Positions 19,711 through 47,644 of a DNA stretch of 64,000 nucleotides are shown here, one piece after another. The position numbers and the translations under genes were made by a program. Below the pieces are notes generated by a model that saw only the letters and a list, made by a program, of their open reading frames with translations, did no database searches and had not been told where the DNA came from. Each line of letters starts with the position of its first letter. The first letter of the stretch is position 1. Source of the stretch: Trueperaceae bacterium (GTDB taxonomy: Bacteria > Deinococcota > Deinococci > Deinococcales > Trueperaceae); NCBI GenBank assembly GCA_965213705.1, contig OZ243913.1, forward strand, positions 3,232,001 through 3,296,000, given 5' to 3'.

Positions 19711-19721
19711 GGGTTTGCGCG

Positions 19722-24887: not shown

Positions 24888-25616
<729 letters not shown>

Positions 25617-25619
25617 AAG

Positions 25620-27941: not shown

Positions 27942-27943
27942 GC

Positions 27944-28873: not shown

Positions 28874-28881
28874 ACGTCGTC

Positions 28882-28907
28882 GTAGGGGCGGGTTTCAAAC
28901 CCGCCCC
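28882..28907. repeat. GTAG-type REP-like palindrome
   Basis: GTAG overlapping GGGGCGGGTTT-C-AAACCCGCCCC, in the gap between the SBP gene and the LivH-like gene. Confidence 0.75.
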
Positions 28908-28917
28908 CGTGGGTGCT

Positions 28918-30040: not shown

Positions 30041-30110
30041 AAGTATCGAGTACCGAGTAAAAAGTTGAAAGTAAAACTAAATGCTTTTACGTCCTATCTC
30101 CTCTGCTCCT
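30041..30110 (+). repeat. Dispersed heptamer-built repeat (AGTACCG family), copy A
   Basis: AAGTATCGAGTACCGAGTAAAAAGTTGAAAG...GCTTTT...TCCTATCTCCTCTGC; homologous to the reverse complement of 38571-38664. Confidence 0.8.
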
Positions 30111-30555
30111 TACTCTCTTCTAGCGGCCGGTGCTGCGACGGGTAATCCACAATCTTGTCCCATTCGTCCGCAGCCGAGCGCGCCACCACCGCGACGAGCG
30201 GGCCGTCGCCGATGTTGAACACTTCGTGGGGCACGCCGGGTTCGATGTAAATGAAGTCGCCCGCCTCGTTCTCGACCGAGTGCTGCAAGTCGGGGCCGAA
30301 GTCGTGGCGGACGCGGCCCTCGAGGATAAACAGCATCACCTCGAAACCGTCGTGGATGTGGGCGTAAGCCACAGCCCCCGGCGGCACCGTGGCGACGTTC
30401 ATGGACAAGCCCTGCGCCCCCACATTTTTGCCCGACAAGCCGGTCTTGTAACGGATGCCGTTCCAGGCGCGGTTGTCGGCCCCGCCGCCACGAATGGTTT
30501 GAACGCCGCCCAAGTCTTCGACATATTTTTTCAGGTCTTCTTCGGTTTCGGCCAC
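30094..30555 (-). CDS. Cupin domain protein
   Basis: AHIH..FE...ILEG and GDFIYIEPGVPHE motifs. Sits between kynA and the SBP gene. Confidence 0.85.
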   Translation of the reverse strand: MAETEEDLKKYVEDLGGVQTIRGGGADNRAWNGIRYKTGLSGKNVGAQGLSMNVATVPPGAVAYAHIHDGFEVMLFILEGRVRHDFGPDLQHSVENEAGDFIYIEPGVPHEVFNIGDGPLVAVVARSAADEWDKIVDYPSQHRPLEESKEQRR

Positions 30556-30703: not shown

Positions 30704-31501
30704 CTACAGCCTCGAGCGAATCTCCCACAGGTCGGGAAACAAGGGCTTCAAGGTCGTCTCCAAATAACCCACCCCGGCCGAGCCGCCCGTGCCCAGCTTG
30801 TGCCCGATGGTGCGCTCGACCATCTTGACGTGGCGGTAGCGCCACTCTTGCAGGCCTTCGTCGAAGTCGACCAAACGTTCGCACACGTCGGCGGTGGCGG
30901 GGTCGTGGCGGTAAACCTCGATGAGGAGGGTCTGCAGCTCAGGGGAAGCTTCGACGCTCTGGGTCACGTCGCGCTGCAAAAGTTCGGCGGGCACCTCATA
31001 GCTCAGGCTCAAGTAGTGTAAAAACGCGTCCCACAGCGTGGGAGCCCGGTAGCGCGCCTCGAGCCGCCGCCGTCCCGGTTCGCCCTCGAAGTGGCCTTTC
31101 AAAATACCCGCCCGCTTGTAACCGAGCGCGAACTCCAACTCCCGAAACTGGTGCGACTGAAACCCGCTGCTCGCCCCCAGGCGGTCGCGGAAGCTGTTGA
31201 ATTCCAGCGGCGTCATGGTCTCGAGCACGTCCACCTGGGCGACGACGGTTTTGAGAATCGTCAACATCCGCTTGAAGGTGTGGAGGACGCGCGGCGTGTC
31301 TCCGCGGCGCAGCAGACCGCACGCGTAGTCGAGTTCGTGCAGCAGTTGCCGGAACCAGAGTTCGTAGGTTTGGTGGATGACGATGAACAGCATCTCGTCG
31401 TGCTCGCGTGAGGCGGGCGTTTGCAGCTCGAGCAGTTCCTCGACGCGGAGGTAGCTCGAGTAGGTGATGGTTTTGTGTGGCTTAGGGTCGGGTGTTTTCA
31501 T
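30704..31501 (-). CDS. kynA: Tryptophan 2,3-dioxygenase
   Basis: YSSYL...LL, HDEMLFIVIHQTYELWF, SSGFQS.QFR, WRYRH..MVERTIG.K.GTGGS.G. Confidence 0.97.
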   Translation of the reverse strand: MKTPDPKPHKTITYSSYLRVEELLELQTPASREHDEMLFIVIHQTYELWFRQLLHELDYACGLLRRGDTPRVLHTFKRMLTILKTVVAQVDVLETMTPLEFNSFRDRLGASSGFQSHQFRELEFALGYKRAGILKGHFEGEPGRRRLEARYRAPTLWDAFLHYLSLSYEVPAELLQRDVTQSVEASPELQTLLIEVYRHDPATADVCERLVDFDEGLQEWRYRHVKMVERTIGHKLGTGGSAGVGYLETTLKPLFPDLWEIRSRL

Positions 31502-31624
31502 GGTGATCTTCTCATCGTAGCACTTTCGCGTTCCGGGTCGAGGCTGACGTTACTCGTGCAGCCGACGAGAAACAAAGAACGTAAGCTCAAAGCAAGTCGG
31601 CTATACTCTTCTCAAGGAGACCCG

Positions 31625-32357: not shown

Positions 32358-33059
32358 TTAAACACCTAAATAGCGCCGCTTCAGCTCGGGCTGCGCGGCG
32401 AGGTCTAGGCTCGAGCCCGTCCACACCACGCGGCCCTTTTCCAAAACATAACTGCGGTCGGTGACGCTCAGCATTTCCGAGAGGTTGCTGTCCACGATGA
32501 GGATGGCTTGGTTCTCGGCTTTGAGCTGCTTGATGCTGCGCCAAATGTCCTCACGCAGCAGCGGCGCGAGCCCTTCGGTCGCCTCGTCCAGGACGAGCAG
32601 CTTTGGGTTGGTGAGGAGGGCTCGAGCGATGGCGAGCATCTGCTGTTCGCCACCCGAGAGTTGGTTGCCCAAGTTCCGCCGCCGCTCCTGCAGGCGGGGG
32701 AACAGGTCGTAAACGCGCTCGAGCGTCCAGGCGTCGGGTTTGTCAAACGGGTTACGCGCGGTGGCGACGAGGTTTTCCTCGGTGCTCAAGTTGGGGAAAA
32801 TGCGCCGTCCCTCTGGCACCAATCCGAGGCCGCGCCGCGCGATTCGGTGTGCAGGTTGACCGCTGACGAGCTTGTCTTCAAAGTGAATCTCGCCGCTACT
32901 CGGCGGGGTCAAGCCCATAATGGAGCGCACTGTCGTCGTTTTGCCCATGCCGTTGCGCCCGAGCAGACCGACTACCTCGCCTGCGCCGACCTCCAAACTC
33001 ACGCCGAACAGGACTTGCGACGCGCCGTAGGCGGTGTCGATGGCGGTGACGCTGAGCAC
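32358..33059 (-). CDS. ABC ATPase (LivF-like), second system
   Basis: GRNGMGKTT, LSGGEQQM, LDEATEGL. Confidence 0.93.
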   Translation of the reverse strand: MLSVTAIDTAYGASQVLFGVSLEVGAGEVVGLLGRNGMGKTTTVRSIMGLTPPSSGEIHFEDKLVSGQPAHRIARRGLGLVPEGRRIFPNLSTEENLVATARNPFDKPDAWTLERVYDLFPRLQERRRNLGNQLSGGEQQMLAIARALLTNPKLLVLDEATEGLAPLLREDIWRSIKQLKAENQAILIVDSNLSEMLSVTDRSYVLEKGRVVWTGSSLDLAAQPELKRRYLGV

Positions 33060-33060
33060 C

Positions 33061-33816
33061 CTAAACCTCCTCGTTCAGGTAAGCCCGCTGTACCTCGGGG
33101 TCGGCGCGGACTTCTTCGGGTCTTCCCGTAGCTAGAAGCGTGCCGTAAACGAGCACCGACACGCGGTCGGCCAGGCTGAAGACCACGTCCATGTCGTGTT
33201 CGACGAGCAACGTAGCATAGTCCTGTTTAACGGTTTCAATAAGCTGAGCCATCCGCTCGGTTTCGCTCGGCCCCATTCCGGCCATCGGCTCATCCAGGAG
33301 CAAGACTTTGGGCCACGTCGCCAGCGCCATCGCCAGCTCGAGCTGCCGCCGCTGCCCGTGCGACAGGTTCGCGGCGCGAGTATCAGCGTCAGCGGCCAAA
33401 CCTACTCGCTCGAGCAAAACCCGCGCCTCATCAATAAGACGCTTGTCCCGCCGCGCGTCCCGCCAAAAGTGAAAGTGGTGCTTTTCGTTCGCCTGCACGG
33501 CCAGCGCGACGTTCTCAAGGACGCTGAACTCGAGCAGCACCGCCGTAATCTGAAACGACCGCGCCACACCGAGGCGGGCGCGCTCCGGCATCGACACCCG
33601 TGTGATGTCGCGCCCCTCGAGTGTGATAGTCCCTGCGTCCGGCGTCAACTGCCCGCTCAGTTGCGCCAGCGCAGTCGTCTTGCCTGCACCGTTCGGGCCG
33701 ATGAGCGCGTGGATTTCACCGCGGTGAAGCTCGAGGTTTAAGTCGTTCGACACCAGCAGCGCCCCGAAGGCCTTGCGCAACCCTCTCACTTGCAACAGCG
33801 GTTCAGTCACCCTCAC
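33061..33816 (-). CDS. ABC ATPase (LivG-like), second system
   Basis: GPNGAGKTT, ARSFQ, LLDEPMAG, EHDM. Confidence 0.92.
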   Translation of the reverse strand: MRVTEPLLQVRGLRKAFGALLVSNDLNLELHRGEIHALIGPNGAGKTTALAQLSGQLTPDAGTITLEGRDITRVSMPERARLGVARSFQITAVLLEFSVLENVALAVQANEKHHFHFWRDARRDKRLIDEARVLLERVGLAADADTRAANLSHGQRRQLELAMALATWPKVLLLDEPMAGMGPSETERMAQLIETVKQDYATLLVEHDMDVVFSLADRVSVLVYGTLLATGRPEEVRADPEVQRAYLNEEV

Positions 33817-34795
33817 CCCCGATGAGCAAGCCCGCCAGACCGCGCCGCGCGAACAGGACGATGAGGACGAGCAGCGGGCCGAAAAAAATCTGCCAGTGCT
33901 CGGTAACTGAGACGAGGGTTTCCTCGAGCAGCAAAAACGCCCCCGCGCCGAGTACCGGCCCGACGAGACTGCCCATCCCGCCCAAAATCACCATCACCAG
34001 CAGTTCGCCCGAGCGCGACCAGTGGAGCAGGTTCGGTGAGACGAACTCGGTCTGGTTGCCGAGGAGCGCGCCCGCCAGTCCCGCCACCGCGCCCGCGATG
34101 CAAAACGCCGCGAGCCGGTAAGGGAGGGGTCGGTAACCGAGCGCGCGCATCCGCAACTCGCTACTTTTCAACCCGCGCAGGGTCCGCCCGAAACGCGCGT
34201 GGACGAAGCGCCAGAAGAGAAACATGCAAGCGAGCAGCAAAGCGTAAGAAACGTAAAACATCGTCAAGCGGTCGCCTAAGTCGAGGAGCGGCAGCGTGTT
34301 CGGCCCCCACCACAGCGAGAGGCCGTCGTCGCCGCCGTAGGGCTCGAGCGAGACGAAGAAAAAGTACAGCATCTGCGCGAACGCCAGGGTAATCATGATG
34401 AAGTAAACCCCCTTGGTGCGCAGCGAAATCACGCCGATGACGAGGGCGAACAAAGCCGAAACGAGCATCGCCAGGGGCCAGACAATGAGCGCCTGGTTCA
34501 TCCACGGCCCCGCGCTGAGGCCCAAAAACGCCTCTTCCTCAAAGGCGTGCTGCGACAAAATAGCGAAGGTGTACGCGCCGAGCCCCAAAAACGCCGCGTG
34601 CCCGAACGAGACCAGCCCGCCGTAGCCGAGGATGAAGTTCAAACTCAGCGCCGCCAGGCCGGAGATGACAATGCGGGTGAATACGGGCACGAGGTAACTT
34701 TGGTCGAGGGACAGGGCCACCAGCGGCGCTAGTCCCAAAACGAGGAGAGTGAGGGCGGTGACGGCTCGAGCGCGGTTGATGGGTCGTTCCCTCAC
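33803..34795 (-). CDS. ABC permease (LivM-like), second system
   Basis: LNFILGYGGLVSFGH, LRTKGVYFIMITLAF. Start at GTG 34795 overlapping the LivH-like stop; the ORF-track 5' extension is spurious. Confidence 0.9.
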   Translation of the reverse strand: MRERPINRARAVTALTLLVLGLAPLVALSLDQSYLVPVFTRIVISGLAALSLNFILGYGGLVSFGHAAFLGLGAYTFAILSQHAFEEEAFLGLSAGPWMNQALIVWPLAMLVSALFALVIGVISLRTKGVYFIMITLAFAQMLYFFFVSLEPYGGDDGLSLWWGPNTLPLLDLGDRLTMFYVSYALLLACMFLFWRFVHARFGRTLRGLKSSELRMRALGYRPLPYRLAAFCIAGAVAGLAGALLGNQTEFVSPNLLHWSRSGELLVMVILGGMGSLVGPVLGAGAFLLLEETLVSVTEHWQIFFGPLLVLIVLFARRGLAGLLIGGEGD

Positions 34796-35706
34796 GCGCC
34801 CCCGCCGAACAAGCCCTGCGGCCGCCAGGCCAGCACCGCGGCCATCAAAATATAAATCGCCATCGCCGACAAGGACGCGCCCACCGCGCTCGCAAAGCTC
34901 GGCGTTAGAAAAAGACCGAGCACGCTCGGCAAGTACGCGCGTCCCAGCGTGTCGGTCAGCCCGACGAGCAGCGAGCCCACCACGGCCCCCCGAATCGAGC
35001 CGATGCCGCCGATGACAATGACCACAAAGGTGAGAATCAGGATGCTCTCCCCCATCCCCGATTGCACCGCGATAAACGGCCCCGCGACGACGCCCGCCAA
35101 ACCTGCCAACACCGCCCCGAGCCCGAAGATAACGGTGTAAAGCCGTGAAATGTTCACCCCCAGCGCCCCAATCATCTCGCGGTCGCTCGCCCCGGCGCGA
35201 ATCCACATTCCCAAACGGGTGCGCTGCACGAGCAGGTAAAGCCCCAGCACAGTGAGCGCGCCGACGATAATCACCGCCAGTCGGTAAACCGGATAAGGCG
35301 CACCGGGTACGACCTCGACCGTCCCCAGCAACCAAGGCGGCACGTCGATTCTCAAGGGTTGCCGCCCCCAAACGACCCGCACGAGTTCGTTGAAAAATAA
35401 AATAAGCCCGAAGGTCGCCAACACCTGGTCCAAGTGGTCGCGTTCGTAAAGCCGCCGGATGACCGCGAACTCCACAACCATCCCGGTCAATCCTGCCGCC
35501 ACCGTGCCCACGAGCAAGCCCAACAAAAACGAGTCCGTCTGCACGCTCACCGTCGCCGCCACATACGCCCCCACCATAAACAGCGAGCCGTGCGCCAGGT
35601 TGATGAGGTTCATAATTCCGAAAATAAGCGTCAGCCCCGACGCCATGAGCAGCAGCGTGACGCCGAGCTGGACGCCGTTGAGAAGTTGCTCGAGAAAGAG
35701 GAGCAT
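34792..35706 (-). CDS. ABC permease (LivH-like), second system
   Basis: NGVQLG...ASGLTLIFGIM..INLAHG. Confidence 0.92.
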   Translation of the reverse strand: MLLFLEQLLNGVQLGVTLLLMASGLTLIFGIMNLINLAHGSLFMVGAYVAATVSVQTDSFLLGLLVGTVAAGLTGMVVEFAVIRRLYERDHLDQVLATFGLILFFNELVRVVWGRQPLRIDVPPWLLGTVEVVPGAPYPVYRLAVIIVGALTVLGLYLLVQRTRLGMWIRAGASDREMIGALGVNISRLYTVIFGLGAVLAGLAGVVAGPFIAVQSGMGESILILTFVVIVIGGIGSIRGAVVGSLLVGLTDTLGRAYLPSVLGLFLTPSFASAVGASLSAMAIYILMAAVLAWRPQGLFGGGA

Positions 35707-35716
35707 AAGTTTAAAT

Positions 35717-35782
35717 AAGGGAGTGGGAAGTAGGGTGTCAAGTCAAAAGCTTTTACTCCCTACTCCCTACCCCCACCTCCCT
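35717..35782. repeat. Inverted GGGAGTA/TACTCCC heptamer arms
   Basis: AAGGGAGTGGGAAGTAGGG...TACTCCCTACTCCCTACCCCCACCTCCCTT between the SBP and permease genes. Confidence 0.75.
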
Positions 35783-36942
35783 TACCGCCCCATCTCGCAT
35801 TCGGCCGCGTAAGCGTCCGCGTGGGCCTCGAACACCTTGCCGACGAGCTTGTTGGTGACGTTGCCGCTATCGTCCACGTAAGCCTGACGGACGTAGATGT
35901 CTTGAATCGGGTAGTGGTTGGTGTTGAACTCGAAGTCCCCACGGACTGAAACGAAGTCGGCTTCCTCGAGCGCAGCAATAAGCGCCGCCGTATCGTCCAC
36001 GTTGCCGTTGACTTTTTCCAAGGCCGAGAGAATGAGGTTGCCGGTGTCGAAACCCTGGCTCGAGTAGAGCGTCGGGTACTCGTCGTACTTCGCCTTGTAC
36101 GCCTCGACGAACGCTTTGTTCGCCTCGTTGTCTAAATCGGGCGACCACTGCGAGGTGTTGAAAGTTCCGGCAGCCTCCGCACCGACGGCGTCCAGCAGCG
36201 TGTCGTCGAACGAAAAGGCGGGGCCGAACAGCGGAATCTGGTCGACCAAACCCGCTTGACCGTACTGCTTGACAAAGTTGATGCCCATCGCGCCGGGATA
36301 AAAGAAAAAGACCGCGTCGGGGTTCGTAGCGCGAAGGGTGGAAATCTCGGCGGCGTAGTCGGTCTGGCCGAGCTGGGTGTAGACCTCACCGGCGATGTCG
36401 CCCTGGTAAAAACGCTTGAAGCCGGTCAGCGCGTCCTGGCCCGCCGGGTAGTTCGGGGCGAGGAGGTAAACGTTTTGAAAACCCTGGTCGGTGACGTACT
36501 GGCCCATCGCCTCGTGCAGGTTGTCGTTTTGCCAAGAGGCGCTGAAGTAGTTCGGGTTGCAACCTTTGCCCGCCAGTTCCGACGGCCCGGCGTTGGGCGA
36601 GATATAAACCACACCCTCACGCACCAAACGCGGAATCGTCGCCATCGCGATGTTGGAAAAAATCGAACCCGTCATAATCTTGACCCCGTCGCGCTCGACC
36701 ATCCGCTCGACAAGGCCCACGGCGGTCTCGGGGTCGAGGCCGTCGTCGGCGACGAGCAAGTCGATTTGAATGGGGCTCTCACGCATTTCGACGGCGAGTT
36801 CAAATCCTTTTTGAACCTGCTCGCCTAAATAACCGCCCCCGGTCGACAAGGTGGTGACCATGCCGATTTTGACGGGGTCTTGGGCGAGAGCGAGGCTTAA
36901 GAAGAGGGTGGTGATGAGACTCAGGATAAGTTTTAATTTCAT
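35782..36942 (-). CDS. ABC substrate-binding protein (aromatic acid/benzoate-type)
   Basis: KIGMVTTLS.GG..LG, PNAGPS.LAG..C, YFSASWQND..HEAMG, APNYPAG.D. Typical of SBPs found with abm clusters. Confidence 0.88.
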   Translation of the reverse strand: MKLKLILSLITTLFLSLALAQDPVKIGMVTTLSTGGGYLGEQVQKGFELAVEMRESPIQIDLLVADDGLDPETAVGLVERMVERDGVKIMTGSIFSNIAMATIPRLVREGVVYISPNAGPSELAGKGCNPNYFSASWQNDNLHEAMGQYVTDQGFQNVYLLAPNYPAGQDALTGFKRFYQGDIAGEVYTQLGQTDYAAEISTLRATNPDAVFFFYPGAMGINFVKQYGQAGLVDQIPLFGPAFSFDDTLLDAVGAEAAGTFNTSQWSPDLDNEANKAFVEAYKAKYDEYPTLYSSQGFDTGNLILSALEKVNGNVDDTAALIAALEEADFVSVRGDFEFNTNHYPIQDIYVRQAYVDDSGNVTNKLVGKVFEAHADAYAAECEMGR

Positions 36943-37769
36943 GTTTTTCCTTTCTCGAGCAGCTCCAAAACGGCTGCCCTGACAGTTTGCCACTGCGGGG
37001 TGGTAGCGACGACGATTTCGAAGTGGCCGGTGTCGGCCAGACTTTCCAGGCGAACCTCCTCGCCCCCCTTTTTCGCTGCGGCTTCGTAGAGTTTAACGTA
37101 GCTTATAGGAACCGTGTCGTCTTGAACGCCCTGGATTAAGATTTGCCGAACGCCGAGCGGGAGGAGTTCGGCGGGCGAGCCCTGCGCGTAGCGTTCCGGT
37201 ACCTCTTCGGGCGTACCGCCCATGAGTCTGTCGGGCGCGTCCGGGCAAATGTTCTGGTTTAAGGCTTTTGCTAAATCGGGAATCCCAGCCAAGGAGACGA
37301 CGCCGCGCAACTCGAGCGGCTTCTCCACATAAAGTTCGCTGTCCGAGTTGAGGTTGTGACGGCCTGCCAGCCACAGGGCCAGGTGTCCGCCCGCCGAGTG
37401 GCCGACGGTGAGGACTCGAGCCAAATCGAGGTCGTAATCGTCAGCCATCATCCTGAGAAAATCTGTACCTCTAGCGACATCTAAAAACGTGTTGGGCCAG
37501 CCGCCGTCAACGTCCAAACGGCGGTACTCGAGGCTCCACACGGCTACCCCGTCGTTCGTCAGGGCTCGAGCAAATTGACCCATGTACTCGAGGTTGACCC
37601 GCGCCCGCCAACAACCGCCGTGCAGCAAAACCACGACCGGATGCGGCCCTGCTCCATCAGGCAAATAGAGGTGTCCGAACTGCTCTGTATGAGGGCCGTA
37701 GCTCAAAACAACGTCCGGCGGCACCTTGGGCAGCGCCAGCAAATCATCGACTGTGAGCAAACTCGCCAC
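36939..37769 (-). CDS. Alpha/beta hydrolase with HGGxW motif (candidate kynurenine formamidase)
   Basis: HGGCW oxyanion motif, GHSAGG nucleophile elbow, D..VP and GHF. The specific function is inferred from context. Confidence 0.75.
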   Translation of the reverse strand: MASLLTVDDLLALPKVPPDVVLSYGPHTEQFGHLYLPDGAGPHPVVVLLHGGCWRARVNLEYMGQFARALTNDGVAVWSLEYRRLDVDGGWPNTFLDVARGTDFLRMMADDYDLDLARVLTVGHSAGGHLALWLAGRHNLNSDSELYVEKPLELRGVVSLAGIPDLAKALNQNICPDAPDRLMGGTPEEVPERYAQGSPAELLPLGVRQILIQGVQDDTVPISYVKLYEAAAKKGGEEVRLESLADTGHFEIVVATTPQWQTVRAAVLELLEKGKT

Positions 37770-37780
37770 GCGACCTAAAC

Positions 37781-38551
37781 CTAACTTGTCACGAGCGCCA
37801 GCACCCGCAGCGGACTTCCCGAACCGCCTACGAGCTTGAGCGGCGGGGTGATGAGGAGTGCGCCCTTGGGCGGCAGCTGGTCGAGGTTCGCCAAGCTCGC
37901 CAGTCCGAACTTCCCGGCCCCGTGAAACAGCGTGTGCGCGGGAAAAGCCGGGTCGAACCCGCCCGCCGCGCCCGCGTCGGTGCCGACGGTTTCCGTACCG
38001 AAGCCGAGAACGTCGCGCTCCACCAGCGCCTTGACCGCCTCAACTGAGGGACCGGGCGACACCGGCCCGTCCTCTTTGAGATTGAGAAACGCTTCCCCTT
38101 GCCGTTTCGACCAGTCGCTGCGGAGCAGCACCCACGAGCCCGCTTCGATGGGGCCGTGCTTGTCTTCCCAGGTTTCAATGTGCTCAGGCGTGAGCAAAAA
38201 GCCCTCGTCTTCTGCGACCTCGTTACTCACGTCGATGACGTTGGCAGGCGCGACGAGCTTGCTCGGCGGGATGGTGTCGGTCGTGTGCTCGGCCAGGTCT
38301 TTGCCCGTCACCCAGTGAACCGGCGCGTCGAAGTGGGTGCCGGTGTGCTCGCCCAAGGTGAGGGTGTTCCAGTACCAGGCGGGGCCGGCGTCGTCGTAGC
38401 GCGAAATCTCGGTGACGCTTAAACCTGGCGACGGCGCGAACATGTCAGGCAGCGCGATGACGGGCGTGCCGGGCTCGAGCGGCTGCGTCAGGTCGATGAC
38501 CCTGACCTTCCCCGAAGCGAGGTCGGTGATGAGGTTGGCGAGGGTGGACAT
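37781..38551 (-). CDS. Cyclase-family amidohydrolase (isatin hydrolase/KynB fold)
   Basis: GPAWYWNTLTLGEHTGTHFDAPVHWVTG (HxGTHxDxPxH), ETVGTDAG, GGSGSPLRVLA. Confidence 0.88.
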   Translation of the reverse strand: MSTLANLITDLASGKVRVIDLTQPLEPGTPVIALPDMFAPSPGLSVTEISRYDDAGPAWYWNTLTLGEHTGTHFDAPVHWVTGKDLAEHTTDTIPPSKLVAPANVIDVSNEVAEDEGFLLTPEHIETWEDKHGPIEAGSWVLLRSDWSKRQGEAFLNLKEDGPVSPGPSVEAVKALVERDVLGFGTETVGTDAGAAGGFDPAFPAHTLFHGAGKFGLASLANLDQLPPKGALLITPPLKLVGGSGSPLRVLALVTS

Positions 38552-38570
38552 GGTGGGGTTCCTTTCTGAG

Positions 38571-38664
38571 GATGCAGAGGAGATAGGAGGCGGAGGAGCG
38601 GAGGAGAAAAAGCTTCTGACTTTAACTTTCTGCTTTCTACTTTTTACTCGGTACTAGGTACTTC
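38571..38664 (-). repeat. Dispersed heptamer-built repeat (AGTACCG family), copy B
   Basis: Minus strand AAGTACCTAGTACCGAGTAAAAAGTAGAAAG...GCTTTT...TCCTATCTCCTCTGC. Supplies the last codons and stop of the ThDP beta-subunit gene. Confidence 0.8.
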
Positions 38665-39231
38665 TTTCTTCCCTTGAATAAACCGCCGAAACCTGAACGC
38701 GTTCTCGCTCAGCCCCAAATCCATCCCGTACTTGTCCGGCCCGACGGCCCGCACTTTGGCGACGATGACGCTGAGGTCGTCGCGCTCAAAGGCCTCCAAA
38801 ACAGCTTCGCCAAAGTTGAGAGGCGTGTCCACGGACGCGACATGTTCGATGCCCGCGCCCTTGGCAATCGCGGCCAAGTCGGTAATTCCGGCGGTCGTGT
38901 GCGAACTGAAGCCGCCGGTCGAGAGTAGCGAGCCGTTGTCGAAGATGATGTGGACTATATTTCTCGGGCGGTAGCGGGCCAGGGTGGTGAGGGTGCCCAG
39001 GTTCATCAGCACCGAGCCGTCGCCGTCGAGCACCACGACGCGCTCTTCGGGCAGGTGCGCCGCCAGCCCCAAGCCGATGGACGAGGCCAGCCCCATCGCG
39101 TGTTGCAAGTAAAAGAAGTTCTCGCGGTGGCCCAGGTTGTAGAGTTCCTGAGCGCAAGCGCCCATGATGGTGACGACGAGCTTGTCTTGCAACTCGGGGT
39201 AGATAACTTCCAAACAGCGAGCGCGTTCCAC
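38644..39231 (-). CDS. ThDP-dependent decarboxylase beta subunit (ComE-like)
   Basis: MGLASSIGLG, DGDGSVLMNLG...FDN ThDP-binding motif, STGG. Confidence 0.88.
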   Translation of the reverse strand: MERARCLEVIYPELQDKLVVTIMGACAQELYNLGHRENFFYLQHAMGLASSIGLGLAAHLPEERVVVLDGDGSVLMNLGTLTTLARYRPRNIVHIIFDNGSLLSTGGFSSHTTAGITDLAAIAKGAGIEHVASVDTPLNFGEAVLEAFERDDLSVIVAKVRAVGPDKYGMDLGLSENAFRFRRFIQGKKEVPSTE

Positions 39232-39245
39232 TTAATCCTCCACGC

Positions 39246-39764
39246 CTAATCCTCCATCAAGTCCCTGGTGAGCAGAAGCGCGACGGGCGACAAAGAACTC
39301 TGCGAAAACGTGTAAGCCTCGCGAATTTGCTTGGCGACTTTATTCGGGTCTCGAGCGTGCTCGAACGGGATGCCCAGCGCCCGCAACACCTCCTCGGTGA
39401 TAATTCCACCGCGCGTGTGCCACGGGTACGGCTCGCCCCAGTGCCCGCGAAAAGCGATGAGCATACATAAGGGCACGCTGTAGAGTTGCGCCAGCGAGAC
39501 GATGGCGTTGACGGCCGCCAAAAAGCCGTGATTTTGCATCAGCAGCGCGTGGGGTTCGCCCGCGAAGTACGCGCCTGCAGCGATGCCGATGGCCTCTTCT
39601 TCTTTGGCAACCTCGATGAGTTGGATGTCCGGGTCGTCTTCGGCGCGCTGCAACAGGTGGATGAGCCAGGTTTCGGGCAGCGCCGACACCGACTTAATGC
39701 CCGCTTTTTTGATGCCCTCGAAGACGATTTTCGAATTTTCGTAGGAGACCGACAAAGAGCGCAC
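39246..39764 (-). CDS. ThDP-dependent decarboxylase alpha subunit (ComD-like)
   Basis: KEEEAIGIAAGAY, LMQN.G, RG..GE. Alternative start at TTG 39755. Confidence 0.85.
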   Translation of the reverse strand: MRSLSVSYENSKIVFEGIKKAGIKSVSALPETWLIHLLQRAEDDPDIQLIEVAKEEEAIGIAAGAYFAGEPHALLMQNHGFLAAVNAIVSLAQLYSVPLCMLIAFRGHWGEPYPWHTRGGIITEEVLRALGIPFEHARDPNKVAKQIREAYTFSQSSLSPVALLLTRDLMED

Positions 39765-39904
39765 CTCTCTTGCAGACGCTGGAATGACGCTTTTAAAAAC
39801 CTTCTGGACAACAATATCATCCTAGCTGCGGAGAAAGTCAACGTATAAAAGGTTTAGGTTGAAAATAAATTTTGAAGTGCGTATGATTTGGGGGTGGAAG
39901 TAAC
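39765..39904. promoter_or_regulatory. AT-rich divergent promoter region with candidate operator
   Basis: Imperfect inverted repeat TCAACGTA-N9-TAGGTTGA at 39838-39862 and TATGAT at about 39882-39887, between two divergent operons. Confidence 0.5.
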
Positions 39905-40660
39905 ATGGAGCTAGCGGGCAAGCACGCGGTCGTAACCGGCGGCGGTCGCGGCATCGGCGCGGCGGTCGCGGCGGCGCTCGGCGCGGCCGAGGCAAAGGTC
40001 ACGCTGATGGGCCGGACGTTGGACGTGCTCGAGGCCACCAGAGACCGTCTCGAGAAAGCCCAGATTATCCAGCTCGACGTGAGCGACGAGGGCGGCGTGC
40101 GGGACGCTTTCGAAAAAGCCGCCGAGGACTTCGGCGACATCGACATCCTCATCAACAACGCCGGAATCGCCGAGAGCGCGCCGTTCGAGAAAACGCCCCC
40201 TGAGCTTTTCCAGCGTTTGTTGAACGTCAACCTCATGGGCACCGTTCACTGCACACAGGCCGTTTTGCCAGGCATGAAAGCGAACGGCTGGGGCCGTATC
40301 GTCAACATCGCCAGCACCGCCGGGTTGACCGGCTACGCCTACGTGAGCGCCTACTGCGCCAGCAAGCACGCGGTGGTCGGGCTGACAAAGTCTTTAGCCG
40401 TAGAGCTTGCTCGCACCGGCATCACCGTCAACAGCCTCTGCCCCGGCTATACAGAGACCGACATGCTCGGCGAGAGCTTGAGCAACATCAGCCAAAAAAC
40501 TGGAAAGACGCAGGAAGAGGCGAGGGCGGTGCTCCAAAACCCACAAGGCCGTTTCGTCCAGCCCGAGGAGGTCGCGGCGGCGGCGCTGTGGCTGTGTGGG
40601 GACTCGAGCGGTTCCGTCACCGGGCAAAACATCGTCATCGCTGGAGGAGAACTTGTTTAG
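39905..40660 (+). CDS. Short-chain dehydrogenase/reductase (3-hydroxyacyl-CoA dehydrogenase-like, abm cluster)
   Basis: TGGGRGIG, NNAG, YCASK. Confidence 0.9.
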   Translation: MELAGKHAVVTGGGRGIGAAVAAALGAAEAKVTLMGRTLDVLEATRDRLEKAQIIQLDVSDEGGVRDAFEKAAEDFGDIDILINNAGIAESAPFEKTPPELFQRLLNVNLMGTVHCTQAVLPGMKANGWGRIVNIASTAGLTGYAYVSAYCASKHAVVGLTKSLAVELARTGITVNSLCPGYTETDMLGESLSNISQKTGKTQEEARAVLQNPQGRFVQPEEVAAAALWLCGDSSGSVTGQNIVIAGGELV

Positions 40661-40675
40661 GAATTGGGAAAGAAA

Positions 40676-41098
40676 GTGAGCGGGCTCGAGCAGAGGCACA
40701 AACTGCTGCAACCGCCGGGCTGGCCCGCGCCGAAGGGTTACTCAAACGGGGTGGTGGCGAAAGGGCGGCTGGTCTTTGTGGCGGGCCTCATCGGTTGGAA
40801 CGATAAAGGTGAGTTCGAGAGCGACGGCATGGCCGAGCAAACGAGGCAAACACTGCAAAACGTCGTCACGGTCTTGGCCGAAGCTGGAGCCAAACCCGAG
40901 CACGTCGTCCGCATGACCTGGTACATCACCGACAAAGCCGAGTACCACGCCAACCTTGCCGCCATCGGCAGCGCCTACCGCGAGACGTTTGCCAGGCACT
41001 ACCCAGCGATGGCGATGGTACAAGTGGCCGCGCTGATGGAAGACCGCGCCAAGGTCGAAATCGAGGCGACTGCCGTGATACCGGAGGACGAAACGTGA
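40676..41098 (+). CDS. RidA family enamine deaminase
   Basis: [23 protein letters not shown]...[12 protein letters not shown]. Confidence 0.9.
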
Positions 41099-41931
41099 GT
41101 GCCTATCAACTCAGCTTGACGGACTTAAAACTTGCGAACTACGAAGCCAAGCACTTTCTGTGGGAGGTCTCGGACGGCCTCGCCACGCTCACGCTGAACC
41201 GTCCCGAGCGCAAAAACCCGCTCACCTTCGAGTCTTACGCCGAGCTGCGCGACCTGTTTCGCAATTTGGTCTACAGCGACGACGTGCGGGGCGTCGTCAT
41301 CACCGGGGCGGGAGGTAATTTCTGTTCGGGCGGCGACGTGTTCGAAATCATCGGCCCCTTGACCAAAAGCAGCATGAAAGACTTACTCGCTTTCACCCGC
41401 ATGACCGGCGACCTGGTCAAAGCGATTCGCGCCTGCCCGCAGCCGGTGGTGGCGGCTATCGACGGAGTGTGCGTCGGGGCGGGCGCTGCGATTGCGATGG
41501 CCTGCGACTTGCGCTACGGAACACCGGACGCCAAGGTCGCTTACCTGTTCGTGCGGGTGGGTTTGGCGGGCTGCGACATGGGCGCTTGCGCGATTCTGCC
41601 GCGCATCATCGGCCAGGGCCGCGCCGCCGAACTCCTCTTTACGGGCCGCAGCATGAGCGCCGAGGAGGGCGAGCGGTGGGGCTTTTACAACCGGGTGTGC
41701 GAGGCTGGAGTGCTCGAGGAGGCCCAAAACACGGTGCGCCGTCTTCTGCAAGGCCCGACCTTCGCCCACGGCATCACCAAGACGATGCTCAACCAGGAAT
41801 GGAACATGAGCGTGGAGCAAGCCATCGAAGCCGAGGCGCAAGCGCAGGCCCTGTGTATGCAAACTGAGGATTTTGTACGGGCGTTCGAGGCGTTTGCGGC
41901 AAAGGGAAAGCCCGTTTTCGAGGGGAATTAG
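41095..41931 (+). CDS. Enoyl-CoA hydratase/isomerase family
   Basis: [24 protein letters not shown]...A.ACDLR. Confidence 0.92.
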
Positions 41932-41932
41932 G

Positions 41933-43135
41933 ATGAAGCCTTCAAACGACACCCCGCCGACAGCGGGCACCGACCGCACCTTTCTCTCGTGGCCCTTTTT
42001 CGACGAGACGCACCGGCAGCACGCGGCGGGCCTCGAGCCCTGGGCTGCTAAAACCTCCAACGAAATTCCACATGGTGACGACGTGGACGCGAGCGTACGC
42101 GCTTGGGTCGGGGCGTTGGGTCGAGGTGGGTGGCTCGAGGCTTGCGTCTCGAACGAAGGCAAGCTCGACGTGCGCACGCTCTGCCTAAGCCGCGAAACAC
42201 TTTCCCGTTTCGACGGGCTGGCGGACTTCGCCTTTGCGATGCAGGGTTTGGGGAGCGGCCCTATCAGCCTGTTTGGCACCGACGAGCAAAAGGCCGCGTA
42301 CTTGCCCGCCGTGGCGAAGGGCGAGAAAATCGCCGCCTTCGCCCTCTCCGAACCCGTGGCCGGGTCGGACGTGAGCGCGCTTGCTACCACGGCTGAACGC
42401 GACGGTGACGGCTTCGTGCTGAACGGTGAAAAAACCTGGATTTCCAACGGCGGCATCGCCGACTTTTATTTGACTTTTGCACGTACCGGGGAAGCGGCGG
42501 GCGCGAAGGGCCTGAGCGCCTTCATCGTTGACGCGGACACGGAGGGGCTGCGGGTTGCCGAGCGCATCGAGGCGAGCGCGCCGCATCCCTTGGCTCGGCT
42601 GGCGCTCGAGAACTGCTGCGTCCCCGCGTGCAAACTCGTCGGGGAGGCGGGCCGCGGTTTCAACGTGGCGATGGCGACCCTGGACGTGTTCCGCTCGACG
42701 GTGGGCGCGGCGGCGCTCGGTTTCGCGCGACGGGCGCTGCAAGAAACGTTGGCACACACGACGACGCGGCAGCTTTTTGGCGAGCCCTTGGCAGACATGC
42801 AACTCACTCAGGCCAAACTGGCCGACATGGCCCTCGAGATTGACGCTTCCGCCCTGCTCGTCTACCGCGCCGCCTGGACCAAAGATTGCGTGCAGGAGCG
42901 CGTTTCGCGCGAAGCCTCGATGGCGAAACTCTACGCGACCGAGGCGGCGCAGCGCGTCGTGGACGCCGCCGTCCAACTCCACGGCGGGCGCGGCGTGAGG
43001 CGGGGCGAAACCGTCGAACGCTTATACCGCGAAGTCCGCGCGCTCCGCATCTACGAAGGTGCCTCGGAGGTGCAACAACAAATTATTGCCAAACAGACTT
43101 TGAAGGCGTACAGCGACGGGAAGGAAACTTCGTAG
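41933..43135 (+). CDS. Acyl-CoA dehydrogenase
   Basis: [37 protein letters not shown]. Start at ATG 41933. Confidence 0.93.
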
Positions 43136-43170
43136 CCATGCTCTTTTCTCTTTTTGGAGGTGACTGAGCC

Positions 43171-44775
43171 GTGTCTGACGCCACAGCCCATAAAGATACC
43201 TTTGTGCGTGACAACTTACCGCCGCCGGAACAATGGCCGGACTTTGTCAACCTGGACAAGCTCGGCTATCCCGACAGGCTCAACGTCGCGGCAGAACTGG
43301 TAGACGAGGCTGTGAAAAAAGGTTGGGGCGAGTGTCCCTGCATCCGCAGCGACGAGGTGACCTGGACGTATCGAGACCTGCAAGAACGAGTTGACCGCAT
43401 CGCCAACGTCCTCGTCAGTGAACTCGGCCTGGTGCCGGGCGAGCGGGTGCTGCTGCGCGCGGCGAACAACCCGATGATGGTGGCCTGCTACTTCGCGGTT
43501 CTCAAGGCGGGCGGCGTGGTGGTGGCGACGATGCCGCTGCTGCGCGCCAAGGAACTGAGCTACATGGTGAAAAAGGCGAAAGTTCGCCTAGCACTCTGCG
43601 ATGAACGGCTCGAGGACGAGATGACACGCACTCGTGAGCAGTGCGCGGAACTCGAGCACACCCTCTACTTCTACGGCTCGGGGGAACTCGAGACGCTCAT
43701 GGCTGAACAGCCTTCCACTTTCGACGCCGTGGACACCGCTGCGGACGACCCCTGCCTCATCGCTTTCACCTCCGGCACGACCGGCAACCCTAAAGCGACC
43801 GTCCACTTTCACCGCGACATCTTGGCCGTGTGCGACTGCTTTCCAAAGCACATCCTCGAGCCCGAGGCTGACGACGTATTCATCGGCTCGCCGCCGCTCG
43901 CTTTCACGTTCGGGACGGGCGGGCTGGTGTGGTTTCCGCTGCGGGTGGGGGCAAGTGTTTACTTGCTCGAGGCTCCTTCACCCTCCAACCTCGCCGCCAC
44001 TATCGAACGGGTCAAGCCGACAGTTTGCTTCACCTCGCCGACCGCTTACCGGATGATGCTGGAAGAGGGGTGCGACCTCAGCAGCCTCAAAAAATGCGTC
44101 TCAGCCGGTGAAACTCTGCCCAAAGCGACCTTCGACGCCTGGCATGAGGCGACCGGAATAAAACTCATCGACGGCATCGGCGCGACCGAGATGTTGCACA
44201 TATTCATCTCGGCCGCGGGCGACGACATCCGCCCCGGTGCGACCGGCAAGCCGGTGCCGAGCTATGAGGCCAAGGTCGTTGATGAAAAGGGCGAGCGCGT
44301 CGTGGGTGAAATAGGCCGCCTCGCGGTGCGCGGCCCCACCGGCTGCCGCTACCTGGCCGACCCGCGACAGCAGGAGTACGTGCTGGACAGCTGGAACCTC
44401 ACCGGGGACGCTTACCTGGAAGACGCGGAAGGTTACTTCTGGTTTCAGTCTCGAGCCGACGACATGATTATCTCCTCGGGCTACAACATCGCCGGGCCGG
44501 AGGTCGAGGACGCGCTGCTCGGTCACCCAGGGGTGCTTGAGTGCGCTGTGGTCGGCGTGCCGGACGAGACGCGCGGCCACATCGTCAAGGCGTTCGTCGT
44601 GCTGAGCGACGGGCACACGCCCGGTGACGAGTTGGTAAAAGAGCTTCAGGACTACGTAAAGGCGACCATTGCACCGTATAAATATCCTCGAGCCGTCGAG
44701 TTTATAGCCGCAATGCCCCGCACCGGAACGGGGAAGGTACAGCGTTTTGTCTTGCGAGAGAAGGCGACACCATGA
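43171..44775 (+). CDS. abmG: 2-aminobenzoate (anthranilate)-CoA ligase, AbmG-like
   Basis: TAH.DTF.RDNLPP.EQWP start, FTSGTTG.PK, DGIGATEMLHIF, APYKYPR. Confidence 0.85.
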   Translation: MSDATAHKDTFVRDNLPPPEQWPDFVNLDKLGYPDRLNVAAELVDEAVKKGWGECPCIRSDEVTWTYRDLQERVDRIANVLVSELGLVPGERVLLRAANNPMMVACYFAVLKAGGVVVATMPLLRAKELSYMVKKAKVRLALCDERLEDEMTRTREQCAELEHTLYFYGSGELETLMAEQPSTFDAVDTAADDPCLIAFTSGTTGNPKATVHFHRDILAVCDCFPKHILEPEADDVFIGSPPLAFTFGTGGLVWFPLRVGASVYLLEAPSPSNLAATIERVKPTVCFTSPTAYRMMLEEGCDLSSLKKCVSAGETLPKATFDAWHEATGIKLIDGIGATEMLHIFISAAGDDIRPGATGKPVPSYEAKVVDEKGERVVGEIGRLAVRGPTGCRYLADPRQQEYVLDSWNLTGDAYLEDAEGYFWFQSRADDMIISSGYNIAGPEVEDALLGHPGVLECAVVGVPDETRGHIVKAFVVLSDGHTPGDELVKELQDYVKATIAPYKYPRAVEFIAAMPRTGTGKVQRFVLREKATP

Positions 44776-47165
44776 AAATCACCATCATCGGCGGCGGGCC
44801 GGGCGGGCTCTACTTCGCGCTGCTCGTCAAAAAAGAGTGGCCGAGTTACGACGTGACCGTGTATGAGCGCAACGGCCCCGACGACACCTTCGGCTTCGGC
44901 GTGGTTTTTTCGGACGAAACGCTGGGCGTGTTCAGGGACTACGACGTGCCTTCTTACGAGGCGATTCGCCGCAACTTCGCCTACTGGGACGATGTGGACG
45001 TGTATTACAAAGGCCACACCCTGCGCTGCGCGGGCAACGGCTTTGCGGGCTGTTCGAGGATGTCGCTCCTCCTCCTATTGCAAAACCGCTGCCGCGACCT
45101 CGGCGTGAGGATGGTCTTCAACCACGCGGTAGACCCCAAAGACCTGTCCCGCTTCGCCGACAGCGACCTCATCGTCGCCGCCGACGGCATCAACAGCCGG
45201 ATTCGGGACGCGCTCGAGGGTCATTTCGGCACCGAGGTAGACCTGGGTCAGGACATGTTTTGCTGGTTGGGTTCGACGCGGGAGCTCGACGCCTTCAAGT
45301 ATTTTTTCCGCGAAACCCCCGCGGGCGTGGTCCTGGCGCACGCTTACCAGTACGAGCCGAACCGGAGCACCTGGGTCATCGAGATGTCGCCCGAGACACA
45401 CCGCAAACTCGGGTTCGACACCATGAGCGAAACCGAGTACGCCGCCGAGATTGAACAGATTTTCGCCGAGGAACTGGCCGGCCACCCGCTGCTGACCAAC
45501 CGCTCGCTGTGGCGGCAGTTCCCGACGGTGAAAAACGCGCGATGGACTCATAAAAACCTCGTGCTGCTCGGCGACGCCAAGGCGACGGCGCACTATTCGA
45601 TAGGCTCGGGGACGAAGCTGGCGATGGAGGACGCGGTGGCGCTGCTTAACGCCCTCCGCAACACCCCTACAGTGACCGACGCGCTAACCGCTTTCGACCA
45701 AGACCGCCGCGAGGAGGTCGAGAAGACCCAGCACGCCGCCAACGTCTCGCTGCAGTGGTTCGAGAACATGGAGCGCTACTTCGAAATGTCGCCCGAGCAG
45801 TTCGCTTTTGGAGTAATGTCGCGCTCGAAGCAGATTACCTATGAGAACTTGCTGCTGCGGGACAAGGGGTTTGTCGAGCGGGTCCAGAAGGACTTTTTGG
45901 ACGAAGTGCGGGACAAAGGCTTCAACGTCCCAGACGCCACCCCACCGATGTTCACGCCTTTTCAACTGCGCGACATGACCCTTACGAACCGCGTCGTCGT
46001 CTCGCCGATGGCGCAGTATTCCGCCGAGGACGGTTTGCCGAATGACTGGCACTTCCAGCACCTCACCAGCCGCGCGGTCGGCGGCGCGAGCCTCGTCTTC
46101 GTCGAGATGACCTGCCCCTCGCCCGAAGCGCGCATCACGCCGGGCTGCACCGGGTTGTGGAACGAGGCGCAACGGGACGCCTTCAAGCGAATTGTGGACT
46201 TCGTCCATGAGCACGCCGCCTCGAAACTCTGTATGCAGCTCGGCCACGCGGGCCGCAAAGGCTCGACGCAAGTGGGCTGGGAACGGATGGACCACCCGTT
46301 GCCCGAGGCGAACTGGCCCATTTATTCGGCCTCGTCGGTGCCTTATCAGGAGGGCGTCAACCAGGAACCCAGAGAACTGAGCCGCACCGACATGGACAAG
46401 GTCGTGGCGGACTTCGTGCGCAGCGCGCGCTACGCCGATGAGGCCGGTTTCGACATGTTGGAGATTCACATGGCCCACGGCTACCTGCTCGCCAGCTTCA
46501 TCTCGCCCTTGACCAACCAGCGCCAGGACGAGTACGGCGGCCCCATCGAAGCCCGGATGAGGTTTCCGCTCGAGGTCTTCAACGCCTGCCGTGAGGTTTG
46601 GCCCGAACACAAGCCGATGTCGGTGCGATTGTCGGCGAGTGACTGGTCCCCCGGCGGACTGTCCGGCGACGACCTCGTGGCCGCCGCCCGGCTGCTCAAA
46701 GACGCCGGAGTCGACCTCGTCGACGTTTCGACCGGGCAAACGGTCGCGGGCCAAAAACCCGTCTACGGACGCATGTACCAAACGCCCTTCGCCGACCTGG
46801 TGCGGCACGAGGTCGGGATTGCCACGATGTCGGTCGGCAGCATCACCACGCCGGACCAGGTGAACACGATTTTGTTGCAAGGCCGCAGCGACCTCGTCGC
46901 GCTGGCGCGGCCGCACTTAGCCAACCCCTATTTCACGCTGCACGCCGCCGCGCACTACGGCTACAAACCTCAGCCCTGGCCGAAGCCGTACCTCACCGGC
47001 AAAGCCCAAGCGTTCCGAATCGCCGAACGCGAGAACGAGGCGACCAGGGAGTTGCGGCTCAAAACGAGACCGCCGAGCCACGCGGTCGAGGTTGACGAAG
47101 TAGGAGCGGCTGGCGAGGCAACCTTGCAACAGGCCGACGCCCTGCTGGTGGAACAAGGAGACTGA
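44772..47165 (+). CDS. abmA: Anthraniloyl-CoA monooxygenase/reductase (bifunctional FAD monooxygenase + Old Yellow Enzyme)
   Basis: GGGPGGLY, DDTFGFGVVFSD, GDA..TAHYSIGSGTKLA, followed by NRVVVSPMAQYSA, HAGRKGS, HMAHGYLL. Confidence 0.9.
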   Translation: MKITIIGGGPGGLYFALLVKKEWPSYDVTVYERNGPDDTFGFGVVFSDETLGVFRDYDVPSYEAIRRNFAYWDDVDVYYKGHTLRCAGNGFAGCSRMSLLLLLQNRCRDLGVRMVFNHAVDPKDLSRFADSDLIVAADGINSRIRDALEGHFGTEVDLGQDMFCWLGSTRELDAFKYFFRETPAGVVLAHAYQYEPNRSTWVIEMSPETHRKLGFDTMSETEYAAEIEQIFAEELAGHPLLTNRSLWRQFPTVKNARWTHKNLVLLGDAKATAHYSIGSGTKLAMEDAVALLNALRNTPTVTDALTAFDQDRREEVEKTQHAANVSLQWFENMERYFEMSPEQFAFGVMSRSKQITYENLLLRDKGFVERVQKDFLDEVRDKGFNVPDATPPMFTPFQLRDMTLTNRVVVSPMAQYSAEDGLPNDWHFQHLTSRAVGGASLVFVEMTCPSPEARITPGCTGLWNEAQRDAFKRIVDFVHEHAASKLCMQLGHAGRKGSTQVGWERMDHPLPEANWPIYSASSVPYQEGVNQEPRELSRTDMDKVVADFVRSARYADEAGFDMLEIHMAHGYLLASFISPLTNQRQDEYGGPIEARMRFPLEVFNACREVWPEHKPMSVRLSASDWSPGGLSGDDLVAAARLLKDAGVDLVDVSTGQTVAGQKPVYGRMYQTPFADLVRHEVGIATMSVGSITTPDQVNTILLQGRSDLVALARPHLANPYFTLHAAAHYGYKPQPWPKPYLTGKAQAFRIAERENEATRELRLKTRPPSHAVEVDEVGAAGEATLQQADALLVEQGD

Positions 47166-47170
47166 CGACC

Positions 47171-47644
47171 GTGGCCCCCGAAGTCCTCAGCAAACCCGAC
47201 AAAACGGCCCTGCGGCTGTGGCTGCGCCTCCTCGGCAGCGCCAACCTCATCGAAAACCATCTCAAGCGTCGCCTCCGTGAACACTTCGACGTGACCCTGG
47301 CCCAGTTCGACCTGATGAGTGAAATCGCTCGAGACGACGCGCCCAAAACGATGACCGAAATCTCGCAACTGTTGATGGTCTCGAACGGCAACGTCACCGG
47401 CTTGGTAGACCGCTTGAGCCGGGACGGCCTCGTGCAGCGCGAGCCGTCGCCGGGCGACCGCCGCGTCTACCTCATCATCTTAACCGCCGAAGGAAAAAAC
47501 CTGTTTGCAGAGATGGCGGTCCAACACGAACGCTGGCTGAGTGAATTGTTCAGCGGCTTCGACGAAGCGTTCGTGAGCGCCCTCGCCGAAGACATCAAAA
47601 AACTTCGGGGAGGTTTGAAGGCGGGGCTCGAGGCGCAGGCATAA
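47171..47644 (+). CDS. MarR family regulator of the abm cluster
   Basis: LRLWLRLL, LMVSNGNVTGLVDRL, DRR...LT..G. Confidence 0.92.
   Translation: MAPEVLSKPDKTALRLWLRLLGSANLIENHLKRRLREHFDVTLAQFDLMSEIARDDAPKTMTEISQLLMVSNGNVTGLVDRLSRDGLVQREPSPGDRRVYLIILTAEGKNLFAEMAVQHERWLSELFSGFDEAFVSALAEDIKKLRGGLKAGLEAQA

Follow-up and report, generated by a model that had tools for sequence, protein, structure and literature searches.

A two-subunit thiamine diphosphate enzyme linked to isatin hydrolase in Trueperaceae, a probable isatinate decarboxylase

Thiamine diphosphate (ThDP)-dependent decarboxylases with separate PYR and PP subunits are exemplified by ComD/ComE and RhiE/RhiF (PMC12141560; PDB 9IZ3/9IZ4). 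LumK/LumL, a two-subunit ThDP enzyme of lumichrome catabolism, acts on a quinoxaline acid after ring-opening hydrolases of the same catabolic cluster, and such enzymes are called rare (PMC12746152). AzcB/AzcC, going by the titles of PDB 9U8Q-9U8S, is likewise built of two small ThDP subunits, with a cyclic or imino acid as substrate. In a window of 64,000 nucleotides from a Trueperaceae bacterium (the whole stretch analysed; contig OZ243913.1, positions 3,232,001 to 3,296,000), we identified a gene pair of this class next to a cyclase of the isatin hydrolase (IH) clade, and we propose that the pair is probably an isatinate decarboxylase working with that hydrolase.

On the hydrolase side, the isatin hydrolases of Labrenzia and Ralstonia belong to a clade defined by the motif HxG[T/A]HxDxPxH, a WXW/FXW pocket and GLAS/GLQC at a position where KynB has I(L/I)E (PMC6117287). 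Bacterial breakdown of auxin and indoles through isatin and isatinic acid to anthranilate has already been reported, with all three compounds described for auxin breakdown in Variovorax, and the IorB/IotA homologs IadB and IadA mark the auxin-degrading iad loci (PMC9613470), which carry a ThDP enzyme, IadAB, of the indolepyruvate oxidoreductase type (PMC9613470, PMC12633357). Isatinate has also been reported in Burkholderia (PMC12538310). The open-access literature searched, outside which most subscription papers fall, yielded no enzyme for isatinate decarboxylation or for dioxindolylalanine cleavage.

The ThDP pair and its cyclase neighbour

The alpha subunit (39246..39764), the beta subunit (38644..39231) and the cyclase (37781..38551) are encoded by three minus-strand open reading frames, with 14 nt between alpha and beta and 92 nt between beta and cyclase, which agrees with the preliminary description of a split ComD/ComE-like decarboxylase heading an operon and directly followed by a cyclase. 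The likely alpha start is a TTG at 39755, giving 169 aa and preceded by a Shine-Dalgarno-like agagagg. The pair is transcribed away from an abm-type gene cluster, and an alpha/beta hydrolase and an ABC transporter lie downstream of the cyclase. Between the two divergent units, the region 39792..39887 holds sigma70-like sites in both directions, four against 0.3 expected from shuffles of 37600-40000, although the spacer has a GC content of only 40%, which may account for part of the excess.

The alpha subunit (PF02776) carries E55 and an ALPETW motif that are invariant in the homolog alignment, and the beta subunit (PF02775) carries GDGS70...DN, with GDGS..DN kept in 74 of 75 homologs. A separate PYR subunit with its Glu and a PP subunit with GDG(x)nN place the pair in the two-subunit ThDP decarboxylase class, and it shares these features and the fold with ComD/ComE and RhiE/RhiF. 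It differs from both in its IH linkage, in lacking a sulfonate or phosphonate context, and in falling below the family cut-offs: neither subunit reaches the ComD/ComE models (alpha, TIGR03845, 118.9 bits against 147.95; beta, TIGR03846, 142.4 against 221.5), and the halves score 83.3 and 131.4 against 312.5 for phosphonopyruvate decarboxylase (TIGR03297), a model on which splitting itself lowers the score. Neither PEP (phosphoenolpyruvate) mutase nor ComA was found in the 98% complete genome, the cysteate and DHPS (2,3-dihydroxypropane-1-sulfonate) routes to sulfopyruvate lying outside that search. The neighbours that recur across 81 related loci are instead IH, a pyridoxal 5'-phosphate (PLP) enzyme and a transporter, and the absence of a coenzyme M or phosphonate context noted earlier is upheld.

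The predicted alpha model (pLDDT 86) has AzcB/AzcC as its nearest fold (TM score 0.82-0.83, 26% identity to the Azc alpha chain), followed by RhiEF (TM score 0.78, 23% structural identity to RhiE). LumKL resembles the pair in following ring-opening hydrolases; both LumKL and Azc have other neighbours, and the substrate predicted for the window pair is an open aryl 2-oxo acid. The preliminary description had regarded an aromatic substrate as new to the class. Heteroaromatic substrates are not, as LumKL illustrates, so that this claim is partly pre-empted by LumK/LumL and AzcB/AzcC; isatinate itself would be new.

The nearest relatives of the pair (92-96% identity) come from metagenome-assembled genomes (MAGs) of Trueperaceae. 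A profile search, which carried no gene context, returned a tight clade grading into a wider family, and atlas searches gave generic names only. On plasmids, distant split ThDP pairs (30-36% identity) occur in different gene contexts, as seen in the 2 of 19 that were opened. These two pairs (L124 and L125, 33%) lie within other catabolic clusters, one with MmgE/PrpD and aldehyde dehydrogenase genes and the other with amidohydrolase, Rieske and molybdoenzyme genes, which suggests further substrates in the two-subunit class.

The cyclase (PF04199) scores 294-314 bits against the solved isatin hydrolases 5NNB, 5NNA, 5NMP and 4J0N, with the next cyclase at 109 bits, and only 20.4 bits against the KynB model TIGR03035 (cut-off 223). 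It contains the segments cited in the preliminary description and carries all three motifs of the Labrenzia and Ralstonia clade, W59-Y-W61, H69-H73-D75-H79 and G216LAS, and its earlier placement closer to isatin hydrolases than to KynB holds. A better KynB candidate is encoded elsewhere in the genome (144 bits, still below the cut-off). Among the full-length cyclases linked to related pairs, the metal motif and GLAS are each present in 50 of 50 and WYW in 49 of 50. One relative (L017:9100-11032; G004:C1, about 782900-784770) has a low-GC insert of ~1.1 kb between the beta gene and the cyclase, and a TAG interrupts its cyclase at a conserved Trp, possibly reflecting decay or a sequencing error.

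Linkage to isatin hydrolase and exchange of ThDP enzymes

The link between the pair and IH is conserved. From a genome scan covering 39 of 64 parts, 490 relatives were confirmed and the best 80 kept (74-96% identity), so that the sample represents near relatives only; with one further relative's locus these make up the 81 loci. At least 1.2 kb of downstream flank was available for 66 of the 80, and whole-genome tests were run on the 48 that lie on contigs of at least 20.5 kb. By record title the loci belong to Deinococcota, Gemmatimonadota, Acidobacteriota, Chloroflexota, Pseudomonadota and Bacteroidota, with possible mislabelling of single MAG bins. The beta gene was present in 80 of the 81 loci and the cyclase in 53, and neighbour clustering over the same 81 revealed no linked electron-transfer partner or ring-opening oxygenase. 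In the 66 flanked loci, IH lies inside the locus in 49 and immediately next to the pair in 36, while 20 have a PLP gene of the cassette type, 17 a sodium symporter and 4 abmA; at the genome level, 47 of the 48 pair-bearing genomes encode IH. The co-occurrence of pair and cyclase foreseen in the preliminary description was thus observed, whereas the accompanying link to abm genes was not conserved. Of 80 metagenome loci, most of them short, 18 showed IH and 25 the PLP gene.

Two controls gave the same association. In 40 relatives, the pair occurred in three genomes and IH in the same three. Of 100 Gemmatimonadota genomes drawn evenly, 80 were tested further, the other 20 having no hit above 31%; the pair was present in 9 (51-85% identity) and IH in 11, including all 9 (Fisher p 2e-10, a value overstated since kin are not independent). 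In the remaining two IH-bearing genomes, indolepyruvate oxidoreductase-type genes (IorAB) directly follow IH, and an IorA of this type, searched with a query from one of them, occurs in exactly these two of the 80. Each of the 11 therefore holds one of two unrelated ThDP enzymes and none holds both, while 69 of the 80 have none of pair, IH and IorA at the thresholds used. A short alpha-like remnant (36%) lies just upstream of a lone IH gene in one genome (L288, G047:C4:1251642-1251893), whose intact pair is 2 Mb away. IH genes unlinked from the pair (L292-L294, L297) are often preceded by a conserved membrane-transporter-like gene of about 480 aa.

The same exchange is seen in a plasmid collection. 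Of its 61 records with IH, 13 were opened, picked for taxon spread, and in 8 of these another ThDP enzyme is present, a single-chain protein in three and IorAB in five (Paracoccus, Novosphingobium, Tsukamurella, Alloyangia and Sulfitobacter). The single-chain protein directly follows IH in three records, two of Deinococcus and one of Nonomuraea, and in one case lies within an abm operon. It represents an unnamed family (L129:8774-10414, L133:6774-8420, L138:6777-8429) scoring under all NCBIfam cut-offs shown, and peptidase genes lie near it in both Deinococcus records. The presence of IorAB beside IH (L130-L132, L136, L137, L289, L290) suggests for the "indolepyruvate oxidoreductases" of the IadAB type a role as isatinate oxidoreductases that yield 2-aminobenzoyl-CoA. 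That one hydrolase is accompanied by three unrelated ThDP enzymes argues, without proving it, for a shared 2-oxo acid, and the known product of the hydrolase is one.

The window cassette has the same predicted end as the iad pathway, from isatinate to anthranilate (PMC9613470, PMC12633357). It differs in having no Rieske oxygenase, thiolase or IorAB, the split decarboxylase taking the place of IorAB, and in what appears to be an amino acid feed; neither a ring-hydroxylating alpha subunit nor an IorA/IorB hit was found in the genome, which sets it apart from an iad locus. Strains expressing iadC-K2 accumulate C8H7NO3 and C7H7NO downstream of IadI (PMC12633357), formulas that, in our own reading, would correspond to isatinate and aminobenzaldehyde.

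Proposed pathway and source of isatin

For the pair and IH, the fold, the cofactor motifs, the hydrolase signature, their co-occurrence and the occurrence of other ThDP enzymes in place of the pair beside IH are directly seen. The order of steps put forward in the preliminary description, from isatin through isatinate to ThDP-dependent decarboxylation, is well supported by the motifs, the conserved linkage and the three exchanged enzymes, and is in our judgement probably correct, with isatinate the likely substrate. IH would open isatin to isatinate (2-aminophenylglyoxylate), its expected product, and the pair would decarboxylate isatinate to 2-aminobenzaldehyde and CO2. The aldehyde would then be oxidised to anthranilate by an unlinked dehydrogenase. 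No aldehyde dehydrogenase was identified in the window, as had been observed before, and a single aldehyde dehydrogenase query gave nine hits in the genome, seven of them near full length and all outside the window.

Anthranilate would in this genome enter the abm pathway. The abm-type cluster (39905..47644, plus strand; NCBIfam), of a kind that adjoins the pair in only four of the 66 loci, encodes a short-chain dehydrogenase/reductase, RidA, an enoyl-CoA hydratase, an acyl-CoA dehydrogenase, a CoA ligase, an AbmA-type monooxygenase/reductase (1095 bits, cut-off 1078) and MarR, and is the likely downstream sink. Since near-full-length or two-part AbmA matches occur in only 19 of the 48 pair-bearing genomes, this sink appears optional, and elsewhere anthranilate may be returned to tryptophan synthesis.

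The source of isatin is less certain. The known isatin sources seem absent here, since searches of the genome returned neither a tryptophanase nor a ring-hydroxylating oxygenase. A class V PLP enzyme resembling kynureninase is encoded at 23773..24885 (minus strand), preceded by an LIV-type amino-acid ABC transporter (24888..30021, minus strand; Pfam; nearest solved chains amino-acid binding proteins), 13-14 kb from the pair. Neither this gene nor the transporter figures in the preliminary description. The relative G021 has a single run of cupin, transporter, PLP gene, pair and IH, with the PLP gene directly before the pair; the transporter-then-PLP arrangement of the window is shared by G021, G075, G084 and G087, and Gemmatimonadota have a symporter and the PLP gene between or beside the pair and IH. 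The PLP gene is also found near IH with other ThDP types, in Deinococcus sp. KNUC1210 (36%) and G146 (56%). It occurs in 25 of the 81 loci, a figure to which L025 contributes a SufS hit and L063 a partial one. Its detection in 41 of the 48 genomes was discarded for gauging linkage, because a paralog (36-41%) is present in many genomes that lack the pair and in unrelated contexts.

The best solved sequence match of the PLP enzyme is the Pseudomonas fluorescens kynureninase 1QZ9 (27% identity), with which it has the GWF and K-Y-L motifs in common, and its class V fold resembles those of kynureninase (Z 40.0) and UstD (7MKV; Z 36.8). Nevertheless, it does not fit the kynureninase family, scoring 84.9 bits on TIGR01814 (cut-off 246.4) and having L202-K203 and DAYQ where kynureninase has Y-K, with its Tyr before the PLP lysine, and DxxH; Tyr226 is replaced by Leu and His204 by Gln, and Asp132 is lost. 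L-K with DxxQ recurs in 31 of 31 rows of the cassette clade. Nor does it fit the SufS/IscS desulfurases, having SSRDGNLRVSPH where these have HHC/GSAC in the C-terminal catalytic Cys loop and scoring 106 bits against a cut-off of 475.

UstD is a decarboxylative aldolase that handles Cbeta-Cgamma bonds through an alanine enamine, and Tyr226 of kynureninase is a catalytic residue that relays water addition. A substrate already bearing a gamma-hydroxyl would not need that step, and dioxindolylalanine fits. According to reviews, kynureninase handles Cbeta-Cgamma bonds through an alanine enamine, and its PLP phosphate assists in adding water to the ketone (PMC7461572, PMC6411801). Dioxindolylalanine is among five products formed in all tryptophan degradation conditions (PMC8228365), and in vitro coupling of isatin with alanine at the beta carbon by PLP enzymes gives a product of m/z 237 (PMC13397446), which we read as probable dioxindolylalanine. 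We tentatively suggest that the PLP enzyme could cleave imported dioxindolylalanine, an oxidised tryptophan, into isatin and alanine as a Cbeta-Cgamma retro-aldolase. With similar reserve, one may picture a widespread salvage of oxidised tryptophan, in which the transporter would import dioxindolylalanine and the PLP retro-aldolase and IH would be followed by one of three interchangeable ThDP enzymes (split decarboxylase, single-chain enzyme or IorAB), yielding anthranilate or its CoA ester.

Evidence against the pathway, alternatives and significance

Several observations weigh against this pathway. A linked aldehyde dehydrogenase was found in none of the 66 loci (one query), and the nearest fold of the pair is an alpha-imino acid decarboxylase rather than an oxo-acid one. 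Five of the 13 opened IH loci (three iad-type, two Burkholderiaceae) lack a ThDP gene within 6-9 kb. Anthranilate was fully restored in Variovorax by the iadC-K2 region, which does not include IadAB, so that a ThDP enzyme is not strictly needed there, and IadI was placed downstream of C8H7NO2, not isatin, and termed a broad amidase (PMC12633357). The relatives sampled are not independent and most of their genomes are MAGs. The PLP gene appears accessory, its cassette type being present in 5 of 9 sampled pair-bearing genomes and about 20-23 of the 48. The model of the PLP enzyme matches cystine lyase, kynureninase and SufS about equally well (Z 40.0-40.1, root-mean-square deviation 2.4-2.5, 359 aligned), and the fold search gave no separation from C-S lyases; judged from this model, it may be a C-S lyase of the cystine-lyase type.

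The best-surviving alternative, which we consider unlikely, is that the substrate of IH is a related oxindole lactam (dioxindole, a hydroxylated isatin or an oxindole-3-pyruvate) and that the pair acts on another aryl 2-oxo acid or oxidatively gives the acid directly. The placement of IadI after C8H7NO2, its description as a broad amidase and the lack of a linked aldehyde dehydrogenase would suit it, as would a conserved cupin (30094..30555, minus strand; PF07883) that recurs near the PLP gene, the pair or the tryptophan 2,3-dioxygenase (TDO) gene, with copies 66-81% identical in L078, L098, L243, L248, L260 and L275. However, the IH signature is intact in all 50 linked cyclases, IorAB, a 2-oxoacid oxidoreductase, occupies the same slot, often beside anthranilate genes, and no electron-transfer partner is among the linked genes.

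Less likely again, the pair could be an alpha-imino acid (heterocycle) decarboxylase of the LumKL/AzcBC kind, with kynurenic acid as one conceivable substrate and a transaminase role for the PLP enzyme. The structural match to AzcB/AzcC and the LumKL precedent point in this direction, and so does the KynA-type TDO encoded in the same window (30704..31501, minus strand; PF03301; TIGR03036 277.9 bits, below the cut-off of 390.7). Such a role would leave the near-obligate IH link and the exchange with IorAB unexplained; moreover, no ring-opening oxygenase is linked, and TDO was found in 34 of the 48 pair-bearing genomes and not in the other 14. An unusual, oxindole-forming activity of the window TDO was considered and found no support, its best solved matches being ordinary TDOs.

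A variant kynurenine pathway, with the cyclase as formamidase, the PLP enzyme as kynureninase and the pair handling a side product, is improbable. Canonical kynU is present in only 9 of the 48 genomes, against the 34 with TDO, and kynureninase is the closest solved sequence to the PLP enzyme. Yet this genome has a canonical kynU elsewhere (317 bits) as well as the better KynB candidate, the cyclase has GLAS in place of the KynB I(L/I)E, and 9 of 20 fetched TDO regions have their own adjacent enzyme keeping Y-K and DxxH. The cassette clade of the PLP enzyme separates from such TDO-adjacent enzymes with 85% support in a quick tree. Those of L239-L241, L244 and L246-L250 (LTGHSHQAW, GGGYKY), several inside abm clusters, form a clade of their own and, from their sequences, look like a kynureninase family missed by TIGR01814.

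An ordinary sulfopyruvate (ComDE) or phosphonopyruvate decarboxylase, as the best NCBIfam hits and the source label "sulfopyruvate decarboxylase subunit alpha" of relatives would have it, is scarcely credible given that every score lies below its cut-off, that neither ComA nor PEP mutase was found and that the neighbours recurring over the 81 loci are of another kind.

The genes downstream of the cyclase appear to be local. The alpha/beta hydrolase (36939..37769, minus strand; PF20434; HGGCW and GHSAG; nearest solved protein a carboxylesterase) occurs in only 3 of 81 related loci and looks like a passenger. The LIV-type ABC transporter (32358..36993, minus strand; PF13458), whose binding protein recurs in 2 of the 81, is likely for an aromatic acid, its nearest solved chain being 4EVQ, which has a benzoate-type ligand. 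Two PIN-domain toxin-antitoxin-like pairs lie at 31421-32306 and 48672-49394, the first (50% GC) interrupting the stretch between this ABC operon and TDO. Between argH and argG, 19153-20208 encodes a protein that joins an RNA 2'-phosphotransferase (KptA) domain to an N-terminal extension of some 165 aa without a Pfam match.

In summary, the gene pattern names three candidates for the loss of CO2 from isatinate, including the IadAB of iad loci, and corrects a common misannotation, since under the name "sulfopyruvate decarboxylase" many uncultured bacteria would wrongly be credited with sulfonate metabolism. If the pair decarboxylates isatinate, it would let bacteria recycle oxidised tryptophan into anthranilate. 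Should the PLP step hold as well, it would open a recycling route for an oxidation product that tryptophan commonly forms, and would supply a natural aldolase acting on tertiary-alcohol amino acids.

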